Positions 8,458-57,551 of a stretch of DNA of 64,000 nt are shown one piece after another. Source of the DNA: Bacilli bacterium (lineage in GTDB: Bacteria; Bacillota_I; Bacilli_A; RF39; UBA660). Under the pieces are notes generated by a model. The model ran no database searches and had not been told where the DNA came from. It was given only the letters and a program-made list of their open reading frames with translations. Made by a program: the position numbers and the translations under genes. The stretch covers positions 17,096-81,095 of the forward strand of contig JAAWGF010000002.1 in assembly GCA_022795155.1 (NCBI GenBank). Direction: 5' to 3'. Numbering within the stretch: position 1 is the first letter of the stretch; every line of letters begins with the position of its first letter.

Positions 8458-9123
8458 TTAATCCCATTCATTTTTTGTTTTTTCTTTAGGATGAATAAAA
8501 TAAGGAAATATACCCATTTTTGAACCTAGCATATGGAGAAGAATAAAACAAATAATAATACTTATTATTCTCGTTATAATAATTGGTATTTCAACATAAT
8601 CATCTAGATTTTGTTTTCCCCCACGACCTAACATGTCAATATAGAAATCATATCTACTTAATTTTTTAGAATGTTCTATTTGTTCTAAAAAATAAGTGTC
8701 TTGGTTTAAATCATCATATACTATTTTACCGACAGGCATTATAGAATCACCATCATAAATACTTTCACCTGTTTTTTGAACAGCTTCCATATTAATTAAG
8801 GCAGCAATCCTTTCTCCTGATGGAAGCGTTAAAGCATACATATAATAGTTGTTGTGATATCCAGCACCCTCATTCATATATTTAATACCTTTTGTTACAA
8901 CTGTAAATTTTTCGTTATTTAGTAAATCTTCTATATTTTGGGCTCTTAAAATATCTTCACTAGCTATACCACCTATATCATTTTCTTCAACCTCATGTTG
9001 TTTTACATATGAATCATATTTCTTAGTATATATTTCTTGAACAATCTTGGTTGGGATAGAACTCAATAAAAAACTTATAAATAGACAAAGCCATATATCA
9101 AATCGTAATCTACGATAAAACAC
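8458..9123 (-). CDS. membrane protein with N- and C-terminal TM helices flanking a ~150-aa domain (221 aa)
   Basis: GTG start with GAGGAG 8 nt upstream. Hydrophobic segments lie at both ends. It sits directly downstream of mscL with no terminator between them. Confidence 0.45.
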   Translation of the reverse strand: MFYRRLRFDIWLCLFISFLLSSIPTKIVQEIYTKKYDSYVKQHEVEENDIGGIASEDILRAQNIEDLLNNEKFTVVTKGIKYMNEGAGYHNNYYMYALTLPSGERIAALINMEAVQKTGESIYDGDSIMPVGKIVYDDLNQDTYFLEQIEHSKKLSRYDFYIDMLGRGGKQNLDDYVEIPIIITRIISIIICFILLHMLGSKMGIFPYFIHPKEKTKNEWD

Positions 9124-9175
9124 AATTAATTCTCCTCATATATAAAATATTTTAATAATAATACAATTATGCATC

Positions 9176-9592
9176 TTATTTATTTTTTAATAAATCACGA
9201 ATTTCTTCCAATAATAACACTTCATCACTTTTTTTGCATGGTTCTTCCAACTTTTCTTCTTTATGTTTAAATTTTTCAAATATTTTAATCATCAAAAATA
9301 TACAGAAAGCAATAATTAAGAAATCAACTATTGATTGAATAAATGACCCATACGCAATATTTGCATCATTTATTTTGATACTCAAGCTATTGAAATTTAA
9401 TCCGCCTAATATTGTCCCAATTAGTGGCATAAGTATATCATTTACAAGGCTTGTAACTATTTTCCCAAAAGCGCCTCCTATAATAACTCCAACTGCCATA
9501 TCAACAACATTTCCTCTAGAAATAAATTTTTTAAATTCATTAACTCCTTTAGTAAGATTTTTGGTTATTTTTATATTCTTTTTCTTTGACAT
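9176..9592 (-). CDS. mscL: large-conductance mechanosensitive channel
   Basis: FKKFISRGNVVDMAVGVIIGGAFGKIVTSLVNDILMPLIG is the hallmark MscL N-terminus/TM1. Typical ~138-aa size. Confidence 0.9.
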   Translation of the reverse strand: MSKKKNIKITKNLTKGVNEFKKFISRGNVVDMAVGVIIGGAFGKIVTSLVNDILMPLIGTILGGLNFNSLSIKINDANIAYGSFIQSIVDFLIIAFCIFLMIKIFEKFKHKEEKLEEPCKKSDEVLLLEEIRDLLKNK

Positions 9593-9625
9593 TATGATTA
9601 CTCCTTTTCAATTAGTTATACAAAA

Positions 9626-9651
9626 GGAAATATACCTTTTTGCATATTTCC
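9626..9651 (-). terminator. weak hairpin after noc/parB
   Basis: GGAAATAT / ATATTTCC 8-bp stem with a 10-nt loop, followed on the minus strand by UUUUGU. Confidence 0.35.
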
Positions 9652-9659
9652 ATTTAATT

Positions 9660-11480
9660 TTATTTTTCATCGTTCTTTTGAATCTTAAATATTACTTGAT
9701 ACATATCTTCAAAATCATATTCTTCACATTCAATTGCGAATCCATATTTTTCAATAGTGTCAGAGCAATTTCTAATAGTATTAATTACTGTTCGTAAATC
9801 AACTTTAGATTCAATAACGCTTTCAACGTTTCTCTCTTCCATAATCTCTTCTTTCCTAACTGATTCTGCAAGAATATTATCTGCTGGATAATTAATAACT
9901 TTTGGTGTATCTTCTATTTCTTCAATATTATCTTGGAAATCATAAGTATCATTTAATGTATCAATATCACCTTTATCTATTATTGGATTTGATACAGGCT
10001 CTTCTTTTATTTCTTCTAATTTACTATTATTAAATGAAAATTCATTTTGATTATTTGTTTGTTCTGTAATATTGTTTTCTATTGATTCTGTCTCTAAAAA
10101 TTGATTTAATGAATTATTACTTTCAACAAGAGGGGTAAAATTAAATGTTTCTTCGTCAGAAATTTCTTTTTTATTATCATCTGTTATATCTTCGTCATCT
10201 TCTGGTGTTAACATGGTAAAGAATTTATTTTGTTGAATGGGCTCTTCTTCTACATTATTAGTATCAAATTGATTAAAATCTTTAATACTGTTATTTTCCA
10301 AACCATTTTCAGACATCAATAGATTATCAATATCTGCTAAAGGTCTTTCAACGTAAATATCTTGAGCATTTTTTTCAATATCATCAACATCTACAAATCC
10401 TGGATTGATATTATTAATATTTGGCAAATTATCAATCATATCATTAATTTCTTTTAATTCCTTTTCATTGTTTGAAATTGGACTTGCTTGAATAGGTTCC
10501 TCTTCTATTTCCTCAACAATAGGACTAGTTGGTATATCAAAGTTTCCAAAACTTTTCATTTCTGAATTGTCATCACTACTCTCAAAATTTTCTGCTTCTA
10601 AATTATCTATGATTGGTACTTGAAGTGGTACCTCACTAATTTCTTCAACTGGTACTACTTTTTGTTCCGAAATTGGTGAATCTATATTCAAAAAATCTAA
10701 TAATTCTTCATCTTTATTATTATTCTCAAATGAATTAATAACTTGATCATTTGGATTTATAAACTCGATAGCACTAGAACTTTGAATAGCTGGTTCTTCA
10801 ACTTGAACACTGTTATTCATAAAAATACTAGGGATTTCTGTTTCAAATTTAGTTTCTGTTAATCCAGTAATTTTTCCTGCTAAAATATCATTAATTAAAT
10901 CATCTGTCTTTTTAACAGTTAATCTGTCTTTTATTATCTTTTCTAAGATATCTTTTTGTTTTTGTTTACTCTCAATTTTTAATAAAGATCTAGCATGACG
11001 TTCAGATATTTTTTCATCTAATAATGCTTCTTGTACATCATCATCTAAATTTAATAGTCTTAATTTATTACTAATAGTAGATTGTGTTTTACCTAATTTT
11101 TCAGCTAATTGCTCTTGAGTTAAATAGCCCATGTCCAATATTTTTCGATAAGAAACAGCTTCTTCAATTGGTGTCAAATCTTGTCTTTGAACATTTTCAA
11201 TTAATGCCACTTCAGCACTATCTTTATCATTTAAATCAGAGATTATAGCTGGAATTGTCCTTTTTCCTGCTAAAAGACTTGCTTTATATCTTCTTTCTCC
11301 AGCAATTATCTCATATTTATCACCTAATCTCCTAACAAGAATCGGTTGAATAACACCATGCTCTTTTATTGATTCTGCTAATTCTGTAATTGCTTGTTCA
11401 TGAAATTTAAATCTTGGTTGAAATCTATTTGGTAAAACATCATCTAATTCTAAATCTACTACTATTTTTTCGTGGTTCAT
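9660..11480 (-). CDS. noc: ParB-family protein, Noc-like, with a ~350-aa acidic insertion between the DNA-binding and C-terminal domains
   Basis: - ParB N-domain motifs PNRFQPR and IIAGERRYKAS are present.
- The HTH LTQEQLAEKLGKTQSTISNKLRLLNL...ISERHARSLL and the C-terminus RTVINTIRN...EEYDFEDMYQVIFKIQK resemble B. subtilis Noc as I recall it.
- Start set to ATG 11480 (GGAAGGAGA 6 nt upstream); the track start TTG 11546 has no SD.
- It lies next to rsmG, as noc does in Bacillus. Confidence 0.85.
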   Translation of the reverse strand: MNHEKIVVDLELDDVLPNRFQPRFKFHEQAITELAESIKEHGVIQPILVRRLGDKYEIIAGERRYKASLLAGKRTIPAIISDLNDKDSAEVALIENVQRQDLTPIEEAVSYRKILDMGYLTQEQLAEKLGKTQSTISNKLRLLNLDDDVQEALLDEKISERHARSLLKIESKQKQKDILEKIIKDRLTVKKTDDLINDILAGKITGLTETKFETEIPSIFMNNSVQVEEPAIQSSSAIEFINPNDQVINSFENNNKDEELLDFLNIDSPISEQKVVPVEEISEVPLQVPIIDNLEAENFESSDDNSEMKSFGNFDIPTSPIVEEIEEEPIQASPISNNEKELKEINDMIDNLPNINNINPGFVDVDDIEKNAQDIYVERPLADIDNLLMSENGLENNSIKDFNQFDTNNVEEEPIQQNKFFTMLTPEDDEDITDDNKKEISDEETFNFTPLVESNNSLNQFLETESIENNITEQTNNQNEFSFNNSKLEEIKEEPVSNPIIDKGDIDTLNDTYDFQDNIEEIEDTPKVINYPADNILAESVRKEEIMEERNVESVIESKVDLRTVINTIRNCSDTIEKYGFAIECEEYDFEDMYQVIFKIQKNDEK

Positions 11481-11578
11481 ATGTACTCTCCTTCCACTAC
11501 TATTTTTTCTATTTATAATCATACTATATTTTGGGAAATATTTCAATTCTTTTTTGAATATTTTAAAAAAAAGGGAAA

Positions 11579-11604
11579 AGAAACAAAGATTTAACTTTAT
11601 TTCT
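11579..11604 (-). terminator. intrinsic terminator after the DUF4234 gene
   Basis: 10-bp stem (one G-U pair) at 11579-11588 / 11595-11604. On the minus strand it is followed by UUUUCCCUUUUUUUU. Confidence 0.5.
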
Positions 11605-11838
11605 TTAGATGGTTGCTATTTTATTAAGTTCATTTTGGATTAAACAGTAGTTAACTATTCCTAAGCCTGTTATTGTTAAAATCAAATATATAACAGAATA
11701 ATTATTACTTTGAATACCACTTTTTAGTTTTGCTTCATACATGACTTTTCCTATTTTATAATTCCAGTAAATATAATAAATGCCAAATGTAACAATGGAT
11801 AAAATAACACAAACTGCAATATTTTTTTCTTTAATCAT
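11605..11838 (-). CDS. small membrane protein, DUF4234-like
   Basis: FGIYYIYWNYK is typical of DUF4234, and there are two TM helices. Start moved to ATG 11838 (GGAGG 8 nt upstream). Confidence 0.55.
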   Translation of the reverse strand: MIKEKNIAVCVILSIVTFGIYYIYWNYKIGKVMYEAKLKSGIQSNNYSVIYLILTITGLGIVNYCLIQNELNKIATI

Positions 11839-11913
11839 CAAACTAACCTCCATTCTCTTTTTTATTTTTTCATATTTTAAAAAGAAAAGGGGGGTTACAA
11901 CCTTAAATTTTAA

Positions 11914-12618
11914 TTAAAGAGGTTTCTTTTTTATTTGTGAATATGGGCGAGGATATTTTTTTGAGGTTGCTTTTAATTTTTTAAATTTTAGTATTGTTCT
12001 CGTACTATTTTCAGATGGCAATAAAAATTCTAGTTTATCAACCAACTCGCAATTTAATTCCTTTTTTGCATAATCAATTTCCAATATTTCCCGGGAAATA
12101 TTAGCTTTTAAAGGTATAAAATATTTCCCAGATTTGACTAATGGTAGACAATATTCTAATAAAATATTTAAAGAAGCAACAGCTCTAGCAGTGACAACAT
12201 CATACTTTTCTCTTGATTTTCTACCAAAATCTTCAATTCTAGTATGTAAAGTATCAATGCCAACTAGATTTAACTCTTTTATAACAGCATTTAAAAAATC
12301 AATTCTTTTATTTAATGAATCCACTAAAGTAACATTAATTTTGGGAAATAATATTTTGATAACTAAACCAGGGAAACCAGCACCTGCCCCAACATCACAT
12401 AAATTTTCAACTGTATTTAAATCAATGATTTTATTTATTGTTAAACTATCATAAAAATGTTTTAAATAAACTTGTTCTTTTTCTGTAATCCCTGTTAAAT
12501 TGATTTTTTCATTATATTCTATTAACAATTCATAATACTTTTCCAATTGTTTTAATTGACTTACGTTTATATTAATATTTATTTTTTTTAAATTTTCAAT
12601 AAAATCATTTATGTTCAT
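11914..12618 (-). CDS. rsmG: 16S rRNA (guanine527-N7)-methyltransferase
   Basis: SAM motif DVGAGAGFPGLVIKI, ~234 aa. It lies immediately downstream of mnmG with a 14-nt overlap. Confidence 0.9.
   Translation of the reverse strand: MNINDFIENLKKINININVSQLKQLEKYYELLIEYNEKINLTGITEKEQVYLKHFYDSLTINKIIDLNTVENLCDVGAGAGFPGLVIKILFPKINVTLVDSLNKRIDFLNAVIKELNLVGIDTLHTRIEDFGRKSREKYDVVTARAVASLNILLEYCLPLVKSGKYFIPLKANISREILEIDYAKKELNCELVDKLEFLLPSENSTRTILKFKKLKATSKKYPRPYSQIKKKPL
12086..12099. promoter_or_regulatory. Noc-binding-site (NBS) consensus palindrome
   Basis: Exact ATTTCCCGGGAAAT, embedded in the 20-bp perfect palindrome AATATTTCCCGGGAAATATT (12083-12102) inside rsmG. Confidence 0.6.
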
Positions 12619-14479
12619 AATTATATTCCTTCTTTAAATAAATCATCAATATTGATATGTCTGCAGGATTAACACCACTAATTCTTAATGCTTGTCCAAT
12701 TGAAACAGGTCGAATATCTTTTAATTTTTGTTTTGCTTCACTCGCTAAATTATGAATTTTATCATAATCAATATCAGGTGGAATTTTTTTATTTTCCAAA
12801 TCGAGCATTTTTTGAGCTTCTCGATTAGCTTTTTCGATATAGCCTGCATATTTAATATTAATTTCAACTTGTGATAGTATATCTTGATTAGAACTTAAAT
12901 AAATAAATTTTTTGATGTGATTTATTGTAATTTCTGGTCTTTTTAATAAATCATATAAAGTTATACCATCTTTAATTGGTGTTGAACCTATTTCAATTAA
13001 ATATTTATTTACTTCTTCTTTAGGTGTTATTTTATTATTTTTTAATGTCTCATTTATTCTTTCTATATCTTTTTCTTTATCCAATAATTTCTGATATCTT
13101 TTCTCATCAATTAGACCAACATTATAACCTAATCTTCTTAATCGTAAATCAGCATTATCATGACGAAGTAATAAGCGATATTCAGCACGTGAAGTTAATA
13201 AACGATATGGATCCCTTACACCTTTGGTAATTAAATCGTCAATTAATACTCCTATATAAGCTTCATTTCTTTTTAAAATTAGTGGTTCTTTATCTTCTAA
13301 TTTTAATGAAGCATTAATACCCGCAATTAAACCCTGGCAAGCAGCTTCTTCATATCCACTAGTTCCATTTATTTGTCCAGCCGTATATAGATTTTCAATA
13401 ATTTTTGTTTCTAATGATGGCTTTAATTGTAACGAATCAATCGCATCATATTCAATCGCATAAGCATATTTTAATATTTTGGCATTTTCTAAGCCCGGAA
13501 GACTATGAACCATTTTTTCTTGAACATCATGTGGCATACTTGTTGAAAAACCTTGAATATAGATATCATCATAATATAAACTTTCCGGTTCTAAAAATAA
13601 TTGATGTCTTTCTTTGTCGGAAAAACGAACAATTTTATCTTCAATTGATGGGCAATATCTAGGTCCGACACCAGTTATATCATTTAGTCCACCATACATA
13701 CTAGATTTATTTAGATTTTCTCTAATAATTTTATGAGTTTCAGGTGTTGTATAAATTAAATGGCATGGTACTTGGGATTCAATTTTATATAAAGGGCCAG
13801 TATCAAAACTAAATGTATGATATGTATTATCACCATACTCAACTTTGGTTTTAGAAAAATCAATCGAATTTTTATCTATTCTTTGTGGTGTCCCTGTTTT
13901 TAAACGAATTATTCTAAATCCTAATTCTTTTAAATTATCACTTAAATGATTACTTGGCTTTTCACCATGTGGTCCTTCTCTTCTTCTTGTATCTCCTACC
14001 ATGATATCAGCTTTTAAATATGTCCCAGTTGTTAAGATAACAGCACTACTATAAATACACTCTTTATTTTCTAAAATGACTCCTTTTATTTTATTATCCT
14101 CAACTACTAAATCTTCAACTAAAGCTTCTTTTATTTCTAAATTATCTTGTTTATTTAAAGTTTCACGCATATTTTTTGGATAAGTTATTTTATCAGCTTG
14201 ACAACGAAGAGCTTGGACAGCTGGTCCTTTAGCGTTATTTAACATCTTTATTTGAATATGTGATTTATCAGCATTAATACCCATTTCTCCACCTAAGGCA
14301 TCAATCTCTCTTACGACAATACCTTTAGCAGAACCACCTACTGATGGATTACAAGGCATATCAGCAATATTATTTATATTTCCTGTTATTAATAGGGTTT
14401 TATGTCCTTTTCTAGCACACGCTAAAGAAGCTTCACATCCAGCATGACCTCCACCTACTACAATTACTTCGTAATTCAT
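12605..14479 (-). CDS. mnmG: tRNA uridine 5-carboxymethylaminomethyl modification enzyme
   Basis: FAD motif VIVVGGGHAGCEA and GidA-family conservation throughout. Start set to ATG 14479 (GAAGGTG 6 nt upstream). Confidence 0.95.
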   Translation of the reverse strand: MNYEVIVVGGGHAGCEASLACARKGHKTLLITGNINNIADMPCNPSVGGSAKGIVVREIDALGGEMGINADKSHIQIKMLNNAKGPAVQALRCQADKITYPKNMRETLNKQDNLEIKEALVEDLVVEDNKIKGVILENKECIYSSAVILTTGTYLKADIMVGDTRRREGPHGEKPSNHLSDNLKELGFRIIRLKTGTPQRIDKNSIDFSKTKVEYGDNTYHTFSFDTGPLYKIESQVPCHLIYTTPETHKIIRENLNKSSMYGGLNDITGVGPRYCPSIEDKIVRFSDKERHQLFLEPESLYYDDIYIQGFSTSMPHDVQEKMVHSLPGLENAKILKYAYAIEYDAIDSLQLKPSLETKIIENLYTAGQINGTSGYEEAACQGLIAGINASLKLEDKEPLILKRNEAYIGVLIDDLITKGVRDPYRLLTSRAEYRLLLRHDNADLRLRRLGYNVGLIDEKRYQKLLDKEKDIERINETLKNNKITPKEEVNKYLIEIGSTPIKDGITLYDLLKRPEITINHIKKFIYLSSNQDILSQVEINIKYAGYIEKANREAQKMLDLENKKIPPDIDYDKIHNLASEAKQKLKDIRPVSIGQALRISGVNPADISILMIYLKKEYNYEHK

Positions 14480-25553: not shown

Positions 25554-27998
25554 ATGGATAGAGTAGAACATAATAATATAGATAAAGAAGTCAAAAAATC
25601 TTTTATGGAATATGCCATGAGTGTCATAGTTGCTCGTGCTTTGCCTGATGTTCGAGATGGTTTGAAACCTGTTCATAGACGAATTGTTTATTCAATGTTA
25701 GAATCTGGATATACACCAGATAAGCAACATCGTAAATGCGCAAGAATTGTCGGAGATGTAATGGGAAAATATCATCCACATGGTGATTCTAGTATTTATG
25801 AAGCTATGGTTAGAATGGCTCAAGATTTTAGTTATAGATATATGTTAGTGGATGGACATGGGAATTTTGGCAATATGGATGGTGATGGCGCAGCTGCAAT
25901 GCGTTATACGGAAGCAAGAATGTCTAAAATCAGTATGGAATTAGTCCGCGATATTAATAAAGATACAGTTGATTTTGACCCTAACTTTGATGAAACAGAA
26001 AAAGAACCACACGTTTTACCTAGTAGATTTCCTAATATTTTAGTTAATGGAACAATGGGAATTGCGGTAGGTATGGCTACTAATATACCTCCGCATAATC
26101 TAGGTGAGGTAATTGATGGTTGTATCGCTTATATCGATAATAAAGAGATAACATCACTGGAATTAATGGAATATATTAAAGGTCCAGATTTTTCAACTGG
26201 CGGAATTATTTTAGGAAATAGTGGTATAAGAAAAGCTTATGAAACAGGTCGCGGTACAATAACAATTAGATGTCGAGCTGAAATTGATGAAGAACATGGT
26301 AAGTCTAGAATTGTTATTACTGAAGTTCCTTATGGTCTTAATACTTTAGAATTAAAAAATAGAATAGCTGAATTAGTACGTGATAAAGTTTTAGATGGAA
26401 TAGCTGATTATCATGAAGAAACAGGGGTTTCTCAAGGTGTTAAAATAGTTGTAACTTTAAAAAGAGAAGCGAATCCAAATGTTGTCTTAAATAATTTATA
26501 TAAACATACGCAATTACAAACGACATTTGGAATTAATTTCTTAATGTTAGACCAAGGCGTACCAAAGACGCTTAATATGCGAGAGATTATTGAAAAGTAT
26601 ATTGAATTCCAAAAAGAAGTTATAATAAGGAGAACAAAATTTGATTTAAAGAAGGCTGAGGCCCGTGCACATATTTTAAACGGATATAAAATTGCTTTAG
26701 ATCATTTAGATGATGTTATTAAAATAATTCGTGAGAGTAAGAGTGATGTGGACGCTAAAGAAAAATTAATTGCAAGTTATCAATTTACAGAAATTCAAGC
26801 TGACGCGATTCTTGAATTAAAATTAAGAAGGTTAACAGCACTAGAAAGGGATAAAATTGATAATGAATTAAAAGAGATATTGGCTTTAATTGAAGAATAT
26901 AATTCAATATTAGGTAGCGAAGAGCGAATATATGGTGTTATCAAACAAGAATTGCTTGAGATAAAACAAAAATATAGTGATGAAAGAAGAACTAACATAG
27001 ACATGTCAGCTATTGATTATATTGAAGATGAATCATTGATTCCAATTGAGGATATTATTGTTACTTTAACTAATAAAGGATATATTAAGAGAATAAATAG
27101 TGAGACATATCGTTCACAAAATCGTGGTGGTGTAGGAATAAAAGGTATGGCAACAAATGAAGAAGATTTTGTTGAGCAAATGATTTCTTTAACAACACAT
27201 GATTATTTAATGTTCTTTACAAATAAAGGGAAAGTATATCGTATGAAAGGATATGAAATCCCATTATTTAGTCGTCAATCAAAAGGATTACCTATTATCA
27301 ATTTATTACAAATAGAGAAAGAAGAATATGTAAAAGCGATATTGAAAGTATCAAAAGACGATAGTGCTAAATATTTGATATTCTGCACTTTAAATGGAAT
27401 AGTGAAGAAAACAGAATTATCTGAATTTGAAAATATTAGAAATTCTGGTAAAATAGCTATTAGTTTAAGAGATAATGATCAATTATTAGCGGTTAAATTG
27501 GCGGATTCTGAAAACGAAATATTAATTGCTTCTTCTAATGGTAGAATGATTAGATTTAATGAAAATGAATTACGTTCTATGGGTAGAACTGCTTCAGGGG
27601 TTAAAGGTATCGATGTTAATAATGGACTTTGTGTTGGATGTGAAGTGGCACATATTGGTGAGGAAGTATTAGTAGTAACAGAAAATGGTTATGGAAAGCG
27701 AACTAATATTGAAGAGTACCGTATGACACATCGTGGTAGCAAAGGTGTAAAAGCATTAAATATTACAGAAAAAAATGGAAATATAGTTGCATTTAAAGCG
27801 GTAAAAGAAGATAAGGATTTAATGATTATAACTAATAATGGTGTAATTATTCGATTACCTTTAGAACAAATTTCAAAATCTGGCCGTGTAGCCCAAGGTG
27901 TAAAATTAATTAATTTAAAAGATGAACAAAAAGTATCTAATATAGCTATTGTTGAAAAAGAAGAAAATATTATTGAAGAACAATCTAATGAAGAATAA
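25554..27998 (+). CDS. gyrA: DNA gyrase subunit A
   Basis: [24 protein letters not shown], the [17 protein letters not shown], the active-site region [10 protein letters not shown], and C-terminal beta-pinwheel repeats. Confidence 0.97.
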
Positions 27999-28014
27999 TG
28001 TTTCACGTGAAACA
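27999..28014. promoter_or_regulatory. parS site 1 (also a likely gyrA terminator hairpin)
   Basis: Exact TGTTTCACGTGAAACA within the 32-bp perfect palindrome 27991-28022. It overlaps the gyrA stop (27996-27998) and is followed by TTTTTAT. Confidence 0.8.
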
Positions 28015-28230
28015 TTATTCTTTTTATAATAAAACATGCAAATAAAACATAAAATATTTTTAATAAAATTAAACAGTTCACAATTAAATTTCTAATATTC
28101 AACATGAAACATCAATAAAAATATAAGTTGTATTTTTGGATTATTAATATAGATAACTATAATAGTATTTATTGGAAATGAAATATTATTTTTATATTAC
28201 CCTATTTTAAAAACTACAATTCAATAACAA

Positions 28231-28246
28231 TGTTTCACGTGAAACA
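28231..28246. promoter_or_regulatory. parS site 2
   Basis: Exact TGTTTCACGTGAAACA within the 32-bp perfect palindrome 28223-28254. It lies in non-coding DNA. Confidence 0.8.
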
Positions 28247-28394
28247 TTGTTATTTTTAACCAATAAGTTTATTTCAAAAATATTAGTATATATATTATTT
28301 ATTTTTTTATAAAACTATATATAATGATATTTGAATAATTGAAATTTTAGTTAATATATATTGCTTTTTTAGTATATTTATTTCTAAATTACTA

Positions 28395-28410
28395 TGTTTC
28401 ACGTGAAACA
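28395..28410. promoter_or_regulatory. parS site 3
   Basis: Exact TGTTTCACGTGAAACA (18-bp palindrome 28394-28411) in non-coding DNA. Confidence 0.8.
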
Positions 28411-28443
28411 TTAAACTAAAATAATATAAAAATGTTATTTATA

Positions 28444-28472
28444 TTGATTTATAAGAATAAATATTATATATT
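28444..28472 (+). promoter_or_regulatory. sigma-A-like promoter of the SRP RNA
   Basis: TTGATT (28444-28449), 17-bp spacer, TATATT (28467-28472). The first G of the predicted RNA helix follows 7 nt later, at 28479. Confidence 0.5.
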
Positions 28473-28478
28473 ATTAAA

Positions 28479-28552
28479 GGTACAACATTTATAAACGAAT
28501 CAGGTCAGAATAGGAATATAGCAGCCTTAAGTTTCCCTAAGTGTGTGTACCT
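28479..28552 (+). ncRNA. ffs: small (4.5S-type) signal recognition particle RNA
   Basis: - CAGGTCAGAATAGGAATATAGCAGCC matches the universal domain IV core CAGGUCAG-N4-GGAA-N4-GCAGCC with identical spacing and a GGAA tetraloop.
- The ends pair (GGTACA 28479-28484 with TGTACC 28546-28551) and are followed by T7.
- It neighbours tadA/dnaX, like B. subtilis scr.
- The ends are approximate. Confidence 0.78.
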
Positions 28553-28568
28553 TTTTTTAGGTGATAAT

Positions 28569-33585: not shown

Positions 33586-34305
33586 ATGGAAAAATATAAT
33601 TATTTGCTTGGATATAAAAATTTACGAGTTTATCAAGATTCTGAGATGTTTAATTTTTCAATAGATTCAATAATATTACCAAATTTTGTAACTTTAAATA
33701 AAGGTGTAAAAAAAATTTTGGATATAGGTTGTGGTAATTTACCTATATCTTTAATATTAACAACCAAGACTTCTGCCAAGATAACTGCTGTAGAAATTCA
33801 AAAAGATGTCTATGATTTAGCGCATAAAAATTTACAATTAAATAAATTAGAAGACAGAATTGAATTAATAAATGATGATATATGTAATTTATATAAAAAT
33901 ATACCAACAGAAACTTTTGATGTTATTGTTTGCAATCCTCCTTTTTTTAAAGTTTCTTCTAATTCTCATTTGAACAAAAATGATTATAAAACGATTGCTA
34001 GACATGAAATTGCTTTGAATTTAGATAATATTTTTAGTATTTCTAAAAAATTATTAAAAAATAATGGAACAATTGCTATTGTTCATCGCCCTGAACGATT
34101 GATTGAAATTATCGATACTATGCATAAATATAATATAACACCAAAAAGGATTCAATTAGTTTATCCTAAAAAAGATAAGGATGCTAATATTTTATTAATT
34201 GAAGGAACAAAGAATGGTAATTCGGGAATGAAAATTATGCCACCATTATTTGTTCACAATTCTGATGGTAGTTATACAGAAAATATAAAAAAATACTTTG
34301 AATGA
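33586..34305 (+). CDS. SAM-dependent methyltransferase, YabB/TrmN6-like
   Basis: SAM motif ILDIGCGN and the N6-adenine-type motif VCNPPFF. It holds the syntenic position of B. subtilis yabB. Confidence 0.75.
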   Translation: MEKYNYLLGYKNLRVYQDSEMFNFSIDSIILPNFVTLNKGVKKILDIGCGNLPISLILTTKTSAKITAVEIQKDVYDLAHKNLQLNKLEDRIELINDDICNLYKNIPTETFDVIVCNPPFFKVSSNSHLNKNDYKTIARHEIALNLDNIFSISKKLLKNNGTIAIVHRPERLIEIIDTMHKYNITPKRIQLVYPKKDKDANILLIEGTKNGNSGMKIMPPLFVHNSDGSYTENIKKYFE

Positions 34306-34313
34306 GGTGTAAT

Positions 34314-35153
34314 ATGTCACAAAGAAGTTATAATGGAATGGCAACATTATATTTAATTCCAACGCCTATTGGAAATATGGATGATATTACAATAAGAGCC
34401 ATAAATATAATTAATTCAGTTGAAGTAATTTTTGCTGAAGATACAAGAGTTACATCGTTATTACTTAAACATTTAAATATAAAAAAGAAACTAATTTCAA
34501 GTTTTAATTATAATGAACAATTAAATAAAGAAAAATTGTTGGAATATTTAAAAGGCGGCTTTAATGTTGGATTAGTTAGTGATAGAGGGACGCCGATTAT
34601 TAGTGATCCTGGATATGAACTAGCTAAGTGTGCAATTGAAAATAATTATAATGTTGTTGGTTTGCCTGGACCAACTGCGCTAATACCAGCTTTAATCACA
34701 TCAGGAATTAGACCATTGCCATTTTTATTTTATGGATTTTTGAATAACAAATCTACAAAAAGAAAGCAAGAATTAGAGATATTAAAGAGTGAAAAAGCTA
34801 CATTAATTTTTTATGAGGCTCCTCATCGAATTATTGATACGTTAGATGAAATGAAGAATATTTTTGGTAATCGAAATATTGCTATTTCCCGGGAAATAAG
34901 CAAAAAATTTGAGGAGGTATATAGGGGTACACTTGATACAATAACTTGTCAGTTAGTTGATATAAAAGGTGAATTTGTTATAGTGGTTGAGGGAAATAAA
35001 CAAGAGAATACCTACAATAATTTGACAATTACTGAACACGTCAATCTTTATATAAGAGAAGGTAAAGATTCTAAAGAGGCTATTAAAATAGTGGCAAAAG
35101 AACGTAATCTAAAAAAACAAGATGTATATAATGAGTACCATGGAATAAAGTAG
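34314..35153 (+). CDS. rsmI: 16S rRNA (cytidine1402-2'-O)-methyltransferase
   Basis: LYLIPTPIGN, FAEDTR, DRGTPIISDPG and YEAPHR are RsmI/tetrapyrrole-methylase-fold motifs. Start set to ATG 34314 (GAGGTG upstream). Confidence 0.9.
   Translation: MSQRSYNGMATLYLIPTPIGNMDDITIRAINIINSVEVIFAEDTRVTSLLLKHLNIKKKLISSFNYNEQLNKEKLLEYLKGGFNVGLVSDRGTPIISDPGYELAKCAIENNYNVVGLPGPTALIPALITSGIRPLPFLFYGFLNNKSTKRKQELEILKSEKATLIFYEAPHRIIDTLDEMKNIFGNRNIAISREISKKFEEVYRGTLDTITCQLVDIKGEFVIVVEGNKQENTYNNLTITEHVNLYIREGKDSKEAIKIVAKERNLKKQDVYNEYHGIK
34884..34897. promoter_or_regulatory. Noc-binding-site (NBS) consensus palindrome
   Basis: Exact ATTTCCCGGGAAAT within the 16-bp perfect palindrome TATTTCCCGGGAAATA (34883-34898), inside rsmI. 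Confidence 0.6.
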
Positions 35154-42641: not shown

Positions 42642-42670
42642 ATAAAAAAGTTATCTTAAAAAATATTAAG

Positions 42671-42828
42671 TAGCTCTCCATCTTTCGATGACAGTTATAT
42701 AGTTATTCACTATATACCCAGTAATTTAATAGCTTGAACTATTAAATCCTTCGGCAATTTTCCCTTTCTTATACAGTCATCTAATTCAAGTTATCATGTA
42801 TAATACTCTTAAAAATTGCAACCTCTAC
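42671..42828 (-). promoter_or_regulatory. lysine riboswitch (L-box) aptamer
   Basis: The minus strand reads GTAGAGGTTGCAA...GAAAGGGAAAATTGCCGAAGGA...ACTGGGTA...AACTGTCATCGAAAGATGGAGAGCTA. This matches the conserved L-box segments (AGAGG..GC, TGCCGAAG, CTGG, TGTCA, GGAGAGCT). It lies in the dapA leader. Confidence 0.85.
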
Positions 42829-43021
42829 ATAAAATATAAGTATGAATTTATATTATCAAATAAAATTAATGTTGTCAATATCAATTTTTTTAATGCTCAT
42901 TATATTATATTTAAAATTAACTTTTTTTTTCCAATTTTTGTTTTTATAATTGCTATTTAGTAAAAAATTATGATTCATGTATAAAAAAATAATTTTTGTT
43001 CAATATTAAATAGGTGATAAT

Positions 43022-56561: not shown

Positions 56562-57551
56562 ATGTTTGCAAAGGATATAGGAATAGATTTAGGAACAGCT
56601 AACGTACTAATTTATGTTAAAGGCCAAGGCATTGTCTTAAATGAGCCTAGTGTTGTAGCAATTGATTCGGAAACAAGAAAGCCACTAGCAGTTGGTAAAG
56701 AGGCCCATGAAATGTTAGGAAGAACACCAGGTCGAGTTAATGCGATAAGGCCTTTAAAAGATGGTGTAATTGCTGACTTTGAGATTACAGAAATAATGCT
56801 TAATCATTTTATTAAAAAAATTAATGGTAAAGGTTTTTGGTCAAAACCACGAATTTTAATTTGTTGTCCTTCTAATATTACACAAGTTGAAAAAAATGCG
56901 ATTAAGGAAGCAGCTGAGCGTACTGGAGCTAAAAGAGTTTTGTTGGATGATGAACCAAAAGTGGCAGCTGTCGGAGCTGGACTTGATATTTCTAAACCAA
57001 GTGGCAATATGGTTATTGACATTGGTGGTGGGACAACTGATGTTGCAATATTATCACTTGGGGGAATTGTTACAAGTGAATCAATCAAGGTAGCAGGTGA
57101 TACATTTGATTCAGATATTATGAAATATATTAAAGATAAATATAAATTATTAGTTGGTGAGAAAACAGCTCAAGAAATTAAATTGACAATTGGCAACGTG
57201 TTTCCTGAGGCTAAGGGTGATAAAATGGATGTAAGAGGAAGGGACTTAGTTACAGGGCTACCTAAAACTATTACAATATCTTCTAAAGAAATTGAAGAGG
57301 CGCTGAAAGAGAGTATTGAAGTAATTATTCATGCTGCCAAAACGGTTTTAGAAAAAACGCCACCAGAATTATCGGCCGATATAATTGATAAAGGAATAGT
57401 TTTAACGGGTGGTGGGGCTCTTCTTAAAGGTTTTGACAAATTATTGTCTCAAGAGCTTAAAGTGCCTGTATACGTTGCTGAAAGTCCACTTACTTGTGTA
57501 GCTGAAGGAACAGGAATAATGCTAGATAATCTCAACTTAGTGGCTGATTAG
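56562..57551 (+). CDS. mbl: MreB-family actin-like protein (Mbl-like by position)
   Basis: IGIDLGTANVLIY, DIGGGTTDVA, LTGGGALL. It lies immediately after spoIIID, as mbl does in B. subtilis. Confidence 0.9.
   Translation: MFAKDIGIDLGTANVLIYVKGQGIVLNEPSVVAIDSETRKPLAVGKEAHEMLGRTPGRVNAIRPLKDGVIADFEITEIMLNHFIKKINGKGFWSKPRILICCPSNITQVEKNAIKEAAERTGAKRVLLDDEPKVAAVGAGLDISKPSGNMVIDIGGGTTDVAILSLGGIVTSESIKVAGDTFDSDIMKYIKDKYKLLVGEKTAQEIKLTIGNVFPEAKGDKMDVRGRDLVTGLPKTITISSKEIEEALKESIEVIIHAAKTVLEKTPPELSADIIDKGIVLTGGGALLKGFDKLLSQELKVPVYVAESPLTCVAEGTGIMLDNLNLVAD

Follow-up and report, generated by a model that had tools for sequence, protein, structure and literature searches.

Noc is currently understood to act through a single effector, an N-terminal amphipathic helix that is released by cytidine triphosphate (CTP) and ties DNA bound at Noc-binding sites (NBS) to the membrane. 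Such a helix was predicted in all of the Noc homologues examined by Adams et al. (2015), and its motif is extremely conserved; in B. subtilis this membrane-targeting helix (aa 1–10) is needed, and NocNΔ10 is non-functional (PMC4331003). The binding preference of the family is set by four positions, which read R173/x179/x184/G201 in ParB and Q173/K179/K184/R201 in Noc (Jalal et al., 2020; PMC7383237). Q173 and R201 switch the specificity, a single permissive K at position 179 or 184 suffices, and R173 and G201, which serve parS recognition, show absolute conservation in ParB (PMC7383237). Here, we describe the noc gene of an uncultured Bacilli bacterium of the mouse gut (GCA_022795155.1), which lies within a stretch of 64,000 nucleotides of contig JAAWGF010000002.1 (positions 17,096 to 81,095, hereafter the window). 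Its product, which NCBI names only 'ParB/RepB/Spo0J family partition protein', is very probably an NBS-binding Noc orthologue without a membrane anchor of its own, and a long acidic linker separates its DNA-binding domain (DBD) from its C-terminal domain (CTD). Full-text searches of the literature on Noc in this lineage and on ParB-family linkers gave no account of an anchor-less, long-linker Noc.

Domain organisation and relation to Noc

A preliminary description of this DNA had assigned the first ~205 residues to a ParB N-domain with a helix-turn-helix (HTH), likened the last ~47 residues to the Noc C-terminus, and placed a low-complexity acidic stretch between the two. The following parts were recognised in the gene:

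9660..11480, minus strand: noc orthologue coding sequence, 606 aa, with the stop codon at 9660-9662
11187..11456, minus strand: ParB N-terminal (CTP-binding) domain, aa 9-98, Pfam PF02195 ParB_N, 4.7e-31
10884..11183, minus strand: HTH_ParB DNA-binding domain, aa 100-199, Pfam PF17762, 1.7e-33
9801..10865, minus strand: acidic, predicted-disordered DBD-CTD linker, aa 206-560 (~355 aa), net charge -69
9675..9800, minus strand: Noc-type C-terminal (dimerisation) domain, aa 561-602, one helix and two strands

The Pfam matches to ParB_N and HTH_ParB support the assignment of the N-terminal part, and the NCBIfam model TIGR04285 (nucleoid_noc) supports that of both ends. Residues 7–203 correspond to positions 2–196 of this model, and aa 552–602, searched alone, correspond to positions 205–255 (E 4.9e-6). 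As the two ends match separately, ~350 aa are inserted where the Noc model has ~8 positions, at the junction of the DBD and the CTD. TIGR04285 was the best-matching family with 295.4 bits, followed by the generic parB_part with 178 bits. In a phmmer search of solved structures, Geobacillus and Bacillus Noc (E 5e-60 to 6e-52) ranked ahead of Spo0J/ParB (6e-50 and weaker).

The structure of the protein was predicted with AlphaFold2 on a 65-sequence family alignment; an earlier alignment of 15 sequences had given the N-domain a mean predicted local distance difference test score (pLDDT) of 54. The pLDDT was 83–97 for aa 11–200, with 83–96 in the ParB_N domain, and 92–94 for aa 561–600. Foldseek against the PDB returned Noc first (7nfu, 7ng0, 7ol9), then ParB and KorB, with ~200 residues aligned in every case, and the DBD matched the Noc DBD-NBS structure 6y93 with a template modelling score of 0.90–0.92. 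The ParB_N boxes are PNRFQPR (aa 17–23), GERRYKA (aa 61–67) and ENVQRQ (aa 95–100), and the residues of the PNRFQPR, GERR and ENxQR boxes were invariant across 65 family members. The sole deviation within the CTP boxes is K66, which occupies the same position as R91 of B. subtilis Noc, where the R91A substitution is tolerated (PMC4331003).

A HMMER alignment to the Noc and Spo0J structures gave Q133, K139, N144 and R161 at the specificity positions. The protein is, therefore, Noc-type at both switching positions and at one permissive position, and the R173 and G201 of ParB are absent. These positions were also read in related loci (given here as L numbers); a scan of one genome per GTDB species yielded 80 loci, and some of the counts below use 76 or 91. 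Q173 was found in every readable member (about 30 of 75 were unreadable), and nearly all readable members carried K179 and R201, the exceptions being T179 in L013 and K201 in L071.

Noc-binding sites near the gene

The DNA of the window contains the sites that such a protein would be expected to recognise:

12085..12100: perfect 16-bp NBS TATTTCCCGGGAAATA, inside rsmG (codons N-I-S-R-E-I-L), 605 bp upstream of the noc start
12122..12129, plus strand: NBS half-site TATTTCCC, beside the full rsmG site
12343..12350, minus strand: half-site TATTTCCCAAAA, in rsmG
34883..34898: second perfect 16-bp NBS, inside the open reading frame (ORF) 34302..35153

Two perfect NBS thus occur in 64 kb, and none of 100 dinucleotide-preserving shuffles of the sequence gave a match, even with one mismatch. 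The site in rsmG uses TCC-CGG, codons of high GC content, where the window as a whole has only ~25% G+C. At the homologous position of rsmG the site is exact in L081, L082, L090 and L091 and carries one mismatch in L083 and L084; of the 91 related loci fetched, 10 have an exact NBS. Half-sites TATTTCCC are likewise enriched in the window (13 found against 3.6 expected, a number reached by none of 100 shuffles) and cluster beside the full sites. A half-site at 34991-34998, ~100 bp from the second NBS, repeats the arrangement in rsmG, where a half-site accompanies a full site.

The Noc-type residues, together with the strong and independent evidence of the NBS in the DNA, indicate that the protein recognises NBS and is an orthologue of noc, and we hold this identity, as an NBS-binding Noc devoid of its own membrane anchor, with high confidence. 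The protein had been placed on the Noc side at most specificity positions beforehand. This placement is retained after proper alignment, and agrees with the ranking of TIGR04285 and of the Noc structures and with the two perfect NBS.

Absence of the membrane-targeting helix

In the structure alignments, residue 6 of the protein corresponds to residue 29 of B. subtilis Noc (7ol9) and residue 10 to residue 31 of G. thermoleovorans Noc (7nfu); the protein begins at the equivalent of Noc residue 22–24. These offsets show that ~22 N-terminal residues are missing, which in Noc form helix α1 (the membrane-targeting sequence) and helix α2 (PMC8429893). The loss of the N-terminal amphipathic helix had already been proposed, and is corroborated by the offset and by a hydrophobic-moment scan, which identified no net-positive amphipathic window outside the folded domains. 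We also considered a membrane-targeting helix hidden in the linker, and rejected it because every amphipathic window of the linker has a net charge of -2 or -3. The absence extends to every family member examined. In the 260 members whose start was called, the P of PNRFQPR falls at position 6–26, mostly at 17 and at position 15 or beyond in 259, and none of the 260 has room for an N-terminal membrane-targeting helix.

The position of the start codon bears directly on this result, as the longest frame in the ORF list opens further upstream, at TTG 11546 on the minus strand (628 aa). The relevant signals around the gene are:

11486..11495, minus strand: Shine-Dalgarno sequence GGAAGGAGAG, read straight from the sequence and at the proper distance before ATG 11480
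11518..11546, minus strand: promoter-like site, -35 TTGAAA, 17-nt spacer, -10 TATGAT (promoter scan 10/12)
9626..9651, minus strand: terminator-like hairpin with T-run, directly after the noc stop codon (terminator scan)

Starting at TTG 11546 would add 22 residues (MKYFPKYSMII...) that superficially resemble a Noc N-terminus. These 22 codons are not conserved: L081, L083 and L084 carry in-frame stops. The frame 5' of the ATG is closed in relatives of 68% and 55% protein identity, where the DNA is kept as promoter, and the promoter sequence is conserved in L081, L083 and L084. The TTG start was therefore ruled out. All called noc homologues begin at the equivalent of MNHEK, and the start at ATG 11480 with a product of 606 aa, as first described, stands. 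The promoter-like site and the terminator-like hairpin frame noc as a single-gene unit. The stem of the hairpin, GGAAATAT...ATATTTCC, looks like two outward-facing NBS half-sites, which may be a coincidence.

A small membrane protein is encoded next to the gene:

11605-11853, minus strand: DUF4234 protein with two transmembrane segments, 82 aa, between rsmG and noc

This protein was tried as a conserved anchor partner and discarded, since only one of the 80 GTDB loci has it and the relatives L081 and L082, both 68% identical, lack it. The insertion is confined to this species and its closest strains (L088, L090, L091).

The long acidic linker across the clade

The preliminary description concerned a single gene. 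Its long linker was confirmed, but is no peculiarity of that gene: the relatives encode proteins of 313–785 aa (319–718 aa in the 80 GTDB loci), all of them without the anchor. The long acidic linker is, therefore, a trait of the noc genes of a large clade of uncultured low-GC gut Bacilli, which may be the order RF39 or a neighbour of it. The 80 loci all come from uncultured gut metagenome-assembled genomes (MAGs) labelled Bacilli, Tenericutes, Erysipelotrichaceae or similar, with human, mouse, rabbit, ruminant and chicken as hosts. A HMMER search with the linker and the CTD through 1.84 billion cluster representatives retrieved 209 proteins (E <= 0.001). Every full-length member of this set, at 374–785 aa, carries the GERR box of the ParB domain, and no other protein architecture with this linker and CTD was found among these representatives. 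The clade comprises at least 200 clusters at 50% identity. Linker length in the family is estimated at 87–534 aa (median 248), and all relatives examined have a linker of net negative charge, from -9 to -69, that of the window being the most acidic.

We weighed the explanation that the middle of the protein is a misassembly, a junk insertion or a neutrally drifting pseudogene region. The low-complexity-like composition of the linker and its lack of domain matches would fit such an origin. However, the same full-length architecture and frame recur in more than 110 protein clusters of independent assemblies, at 65–99% identity and 596–613 aa. The window DNA also matches the mouse-gut MAG GCA_022800535.1 (contig JAAWQO010000005.1), about 20 mouse-gut metagenome runs contain 85–100% of the sampled words of noc, and an 18-kb contig from an independent mouse-gut run shows no difference across 9100-12700 (3.6 kb). 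An assembly artefact, which had been named beforehand as a possible refutation, is excluded by this identical contig and these runs. Contigs from a mouse-gut metatranscriptome span 10126-10740, within the linker, without a mismatch, although they indicate presence only, and DNA carry-over is possible.

Selection was estimated as the ratio of nonsynonymous to synonymous substitution rates (dN/dS; Nei-Gojobori) against three relatives. Values were 0.03–0.08 for the N-terminal 205 codons, 0.01–0.10 for the C-terminal domain and 0.16–0.34 for the linker. Selection on the linker is relaxed, yet clearly purifying. With dN/dS below 0.35, conserved motifs in the linker (described below) and no tandem repeats, an artefact or a decaying gene has a negligible chance of being the explanation.

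Composition, predicted disorder and conserved motifs of the linker

The linker is rich in E (16%), N (13.5%), I (11%) and D (9%), and contains 89 D+E against 20 K+R, of which 3 are R. The acidic middle of ~350 aa is confirmed, with its net charge of -69, whereas 'nearly free of K/R' was a slight overstatement: K+R make up 5.6% of the linker, compared with 16.6% of the N-terminal part. Recurring short EEP motifs, as had been pointed out, were located four times, at aa 228, 327, 412 and 493; neither tandem DNA repeats nor internal protein repeats were found behind them in noc. Pfam, NCBIfam, PDB sequence and Foldseek searches identified no known domain in the linker, and the pLDDT is below 50 across almost its whole length, which agrees with a disordered region rather than a folded domain. 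The exception is aa 338–389, with a pLDDT of 71–78 and predicted helices at 338–350 and, shorter, at 365–371 and 384–388. The description of the linker as acidic and, by prediction, disordered therefore holds, but it is not featureless, as it contains such motif islands and is under purifying selection.

Four conserved motifs were identified, with residue counts taken from an alignment of 149 family members:

10512..10541, minus strand: motif 1, aa 314-323 FDIPTSPIVE, consensus [ND][IV]PxxP[IV][IV]E; P317 in 117 and P320 in 91 members
10311..10469, minus strand: motif 2 island, aa 338-390, helix 338-350 and NPGFVDVDDIEKNAQDIYVERPLADIDNLL; family consensus of aa 359-388 NPGF[MV]D[IV]DKIExxAxDIxxEKPxADxDxLL; I368 in 106, A372 in 111, D374 in 110, I375 in 111 and L388 in 97 members
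10200..10232, minus strand: motif 3, aa 417-427 QNKFFTMLTPE, consensus [GN]KFF[NT][FM]L[ED][ED]E; F420 in 138, F421 in 94 and K419 in 86 members
10131..10145, minus strand: motif 4, aa 446-450 FNFTP, consensus FxFxP; P450 in 135 and F446 in 85 members

Motifs 2 and 3 are also present in distant members that have soj-spo0J adjacent, such as L073, L075 and L078, which shows that they are old within the clade. These elements are short linear motifs of a typical docking type, set in an acidic and disordered chain, and we are fairly confident that selection maintains the linker as a disordered region bearing such motifs. Among the roles that had been suggested for it (polyanionic spacer, DNA mimic, partner docking), partner docking is the best supported, by these conserved short motifs.

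The same data bear on the linker as a spacer or polyanionic brush that acts independently of its sequence, in which length and charge alone would matter and no specific partner would exist. A larger clamp lumen could then pass roadblocks or hold more DNA, and a negatively charged entropic brush over the DNA near NBS could exclude division proteins or neighbouring DNA. Such a role would fit the net negative charge found in all relatives, the freedom of most of the sequence to vary, the low pLDDT of most of the linker, the narrow length range within the genus (596–613 aa for the protein) and the lack of an identified partner. It would not, however, predict that F420, P450 and A372/D374/I375 (138, 135 and ~110 of the 149 members) are kept at 60–90% amid otherwise unalignable sequence, and a linker length of ~87–534 aa across the family means that no particular length is required. 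We regard a pure spacer as unlikely.

A further explanation is that the linker regulates the protein in cis, as a DNA mimic or autoinhibitor that covers the surface for DNA binding or that of the CTP gate until it is displaced by NBS and CTP. It would sharpen specificity, limit spreading and stand in for the autoinhibitory contacts of α1 and α2. In canonical Noc the N-terminal helices are autoinhibited on the N-terminal domain (NTD) (PMC8429893), and those helices are missing here. The strong negative charge of the linker would suit this role, as would the pLDDT of the motif 2 island in the monomer prediction, as if it were packed on the folded part. Several motifs across 250 residues, however, exceed what one plug would need, and the hydrophobic GKFF and FxFxP are unlike DNA mimicry. 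Regulation in cis is accordingly a reading that we consider quite improbable, and docking of a partner is retained as the favoured role of the motifs.

NBS half-sites in the noc promoter

The spacer of the noc promoter opens with a half-site TATTTCCC (11533-11540), a candidate operator that, when extended, matches 12 of the 16 positions of the full NBS. In 22 of 76 loci, the 200 bp upstream of noc contain half-sites of the form ATTTCCC/GGGAAAT; at the background rate of 0.027 per 200 bp, ~2 such loci are expected. All of the closest relatives, L001–L023, have promoter half-sites, with one to four each and usually in the form TTGxAxTATTTCCCAAAATATAGTAT. They are often accompanied by a second copy 21–23 bp upstream, by inverted halves or by a near-perfect full NBS (L008, L054). 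The layout combines a full NBS 280–600 bp upstream in rsmG with half-sites in the promoter.

KorB of plasmid RK2 is loaded at a distant site, from which it slides, and is retained at promoters as a repressor (PMC11790492). The layout of the noc loci suggests that noc may, similarly, be autoregulated through its promoter half-sites, which we propose tentatively as a possibility that falls somewhat short of probable.

Genomic context and the chromosomal ParB

The gene order around noc is dnaA / rpmH-rnpA-yidC-jag-HD-mnmE-mnmG-rsmG-(DUF4234)-noc-mscL, and the synteny mnmG-rsmG-noc is conserved in 75 of the 80 related loci. The GC skew changes sign at ~18–20 kb, in the gap between rnpA/rpmH and dnaA, which places oriC ~7–8 kb from noc. 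In 28 of the 80 loci soj-spo0J follows noc directly; this is the case neither here nor in the closest relatives. The clade Spo0J is 292–296 aa long with R-type residues, reads GKSRSHITNMLGLLNL...SMSHAR (ParB type), and carries at its N-terminus RRALGKGLEELF, a ParA-interaction peptide of the LG(R/K)GL type, which is lacking in the MNHEKIVVDLE of the noc product. A soj-spo0J pair with R-type residues directly after noc shows that the two lineages are distinct, and the term 'paralogue' used earlier for the noc product is thus right in the evolutionary sense.

The window also contains three perfect parS sites beside an RNA gene:

27997-28016, 28229-28248 and 28393-28412: parS, identical 20-bp palindromes AATGTTTCACGTGAAACATT
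28471-28566, plus strand: small signal recognition particle (SRP) RNA, 58.5 bits

The parS trio lies in the 470-bp gap from gyrA to the SRP RNA gene, ~8–9 kb from dnaA and 16.5–17 kb from noc, and no chance match was obtained at this stringency. No second ParB, ParA Walker motif or Soj homologue was detected in the window (tblastn, motif scan), and no ParB/ParA was present in ~10 kb to its right and ~4 kb to its left. Taken together with a TIGR04285 score just below the cutoff, these sites raise the question of whether the noc product is really the centromere-binding ParB (Spo0J) of the chromosome with an odd linker, serving the parS near oriC. The perfect and conserved NBS and the missing LG(R/K)GL peptide speak against this, as do the relatives that encode the long-linker protein and a normal Spo0J of 292–296 aa side by side. 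We consider it highly improbable that the protein is the chromosomal ParB; the simplest expectation is that a parS-specific ParB is encoded elsewhere in the genome, and the identification of the protein as Noc is kept.

Other features of the region concern the organism. Genes for SpoIID, SpoIIID, CotJB, CotJC/Mn-catalase and MreB were identified in L085–L087 (right flank) and at 56562-57551 of the window. These sporulation-type genes and MreB suggest that the organism is probably a walled, possibly spore-forming rod, though some related records are labelled 'Tenericutes'. A ComK-like gene adjoins dnaN in relatives. One further RNA element was found:

42663-42835, minus strand: lysine riboswitch, 106 bits

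Proposed mechanism and significance

We lean, by a modest degree, towards a composite mechanism in which the protein is an NBS-loaded CTP clamp with motif-mediated partner docking as its effector arm, rather than direct membrane binding. Its route of action is probably different from that of textbook Noc. As established for B. subtilis Noc, the dimer would nucleate at an NBS, bind CTP, close to a sliding clamp and spread. Having no helix that could enter the membrane, the clamps gathered around each NBS would instead present a brush of long acidic tethers, on which the hydrophobic/acidic motifs NPGF..D.DKIE..A.DI..LL, GKFF, IPxxP and FxFxP would capture a partner multivalently. The partner would most plausibly be a membrane-associated or division protein, in which case the effector arm of nucleoid occlusion would be the linker in place of the membrane anchor. 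Taken separately, this partner-docking effector step is quite possible, with a likelihood just under even. The protein would also repress its own promoter, with the NBS half-site between -35 and -10 as the operator element and the full NBS 605 bp upstream as the loading site.

Several observations weigh against this mechanism. The whole-protein TIGR04285 score is 20 bits below the NCBI curated cutoff of 315, and the equivalent of position 184 is N instead of K. Three perfect parS occur in the window, with no canonical ParB in the ~78 kb examined. No partner was found: a motif 2 hidden Markov model built from 65 segments and searched against the 9,738 ORFs encoded in the window and in 91 loci (~1.5 Mb) gave significant matches in the Noc family alone, and the DUF4234 membrane protein next to noc is not conserved in that place. 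The moderate pLDDT of the motif 2 island could equally mean docking back on the protein itself, and the half-site in the promoter could be the operator of a different regulator with specificity for TTTCCCAAAA. Finally, we infer CTP binding, clamp closure, NBS binding, the lack of membrane binding and any division phenotype from the sequence of an organism that is uncultured.

The existence of this clade breaks the current model of Noc, as a large natural group still has the NBS together with the specificity residues, CTP boxes and dimerisation domain, yet has dropped the helix and acquired a selected acidic linker with conserved motifs of the docking type. Either Noc can occlude by another mechanism, or a second job of Noc survives without membrane binding, for which chromosome organisation, replication control and transcriptional control are candidates. 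More boldly, this gut Bacilli clade might run nucleoid occlusion altogether without a membrane-binding Noc, with motifs on a polyanionic tether of 100–500 residues capturing a division or membrane protein directly, a protein-mediated route of SlmA-like logic that would have arisen within the ParB/Noc fold, combined with KorB-like sliding autorepression through the half-site operators; we put this forward as a doubtful proposal. The clade offers natural separation-of-function variants of Noc and peptides that can serve at once in the search for Noc partners, as well as a test case for the effects of linker length and charge on ParB-family clamps. In addition, the arrays of half-sites in front of noc are a candidate chromosomal example of clamp-based gene regulation.

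Comparison with known systems

The closest described system is Noc (YyaA) of B. subtilis, Geobacillus and Staphylococcus, for which TIGR04285 and the PDB structures 7nfu, 7ng0, 7ol9 and 6y93 served as the comparison set. The order NTD-DBD-CTD and the CTP-binding boxes are common to both, and the first 200 aa of the noc product are 48–53% identical to Noc. Q173, K179, R201 and the C-terminal domain are matched, whereas position 184 is N here and K in Noc. The 16-bp NBS on the chromosome is identical, and the gene occupies the same place after rsmG (gidB), beside oriC. In contrast to Noc, the product described here lacks helices α1 and α2, soj-spo0J is not downstream, and NBS half-sites occur in its own promoter.

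Chromosomal ParB/Spo0J (6sdk, 1vz0, 4umk, 6t1f) has the fold and the CTP-clamp architecture in common with the noc product, including a C-terminal domain that dimerises, with 41–47% identity in the N-terminal 200 aa. The noc product differs in having Q and R in place of R and G, in lacking an N-terminal ParA-stimulating peptide, and in its far longer, acidic linker. KorB of RK2 (8qa8, 8qa9) likewise has the ParB-family clamp fold (Foldseek E 2e-12), although the identity is only 27–30%. Both systems combine a distant loading site with an operator element at the promoter, here the full NBS in rsmG and the half-site in the noc promoter. The KorB operators, however, are full palindromes, and no KorA-like locking partner is known here; repression by the noc product is proposed from the positions of the sites.

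The proposed role of the linker resembles that of the disordered tethers of bacterial cell-cycle proteins. The C-terminal linker of FtsZ with its conserved peptide and the acidic tail of the single-stranded DNA-binding protein (SSB) are long flexible segments with short hydrophobic/acidic peptides that recruit partners, and their valency is multiplied by the formation of polymers or clusters. We know of no sequence match between the linker motifs and the FtsZ or SSB peptides; no FtsZ gene of the clade, whose C-terminal peptide could be compared with the motifs, was present in the window or in the fetched related DNA. The noc motifs are distinguished from these tethers by their location, as they are internal and lie between the two folded domains of a DNA clamp.

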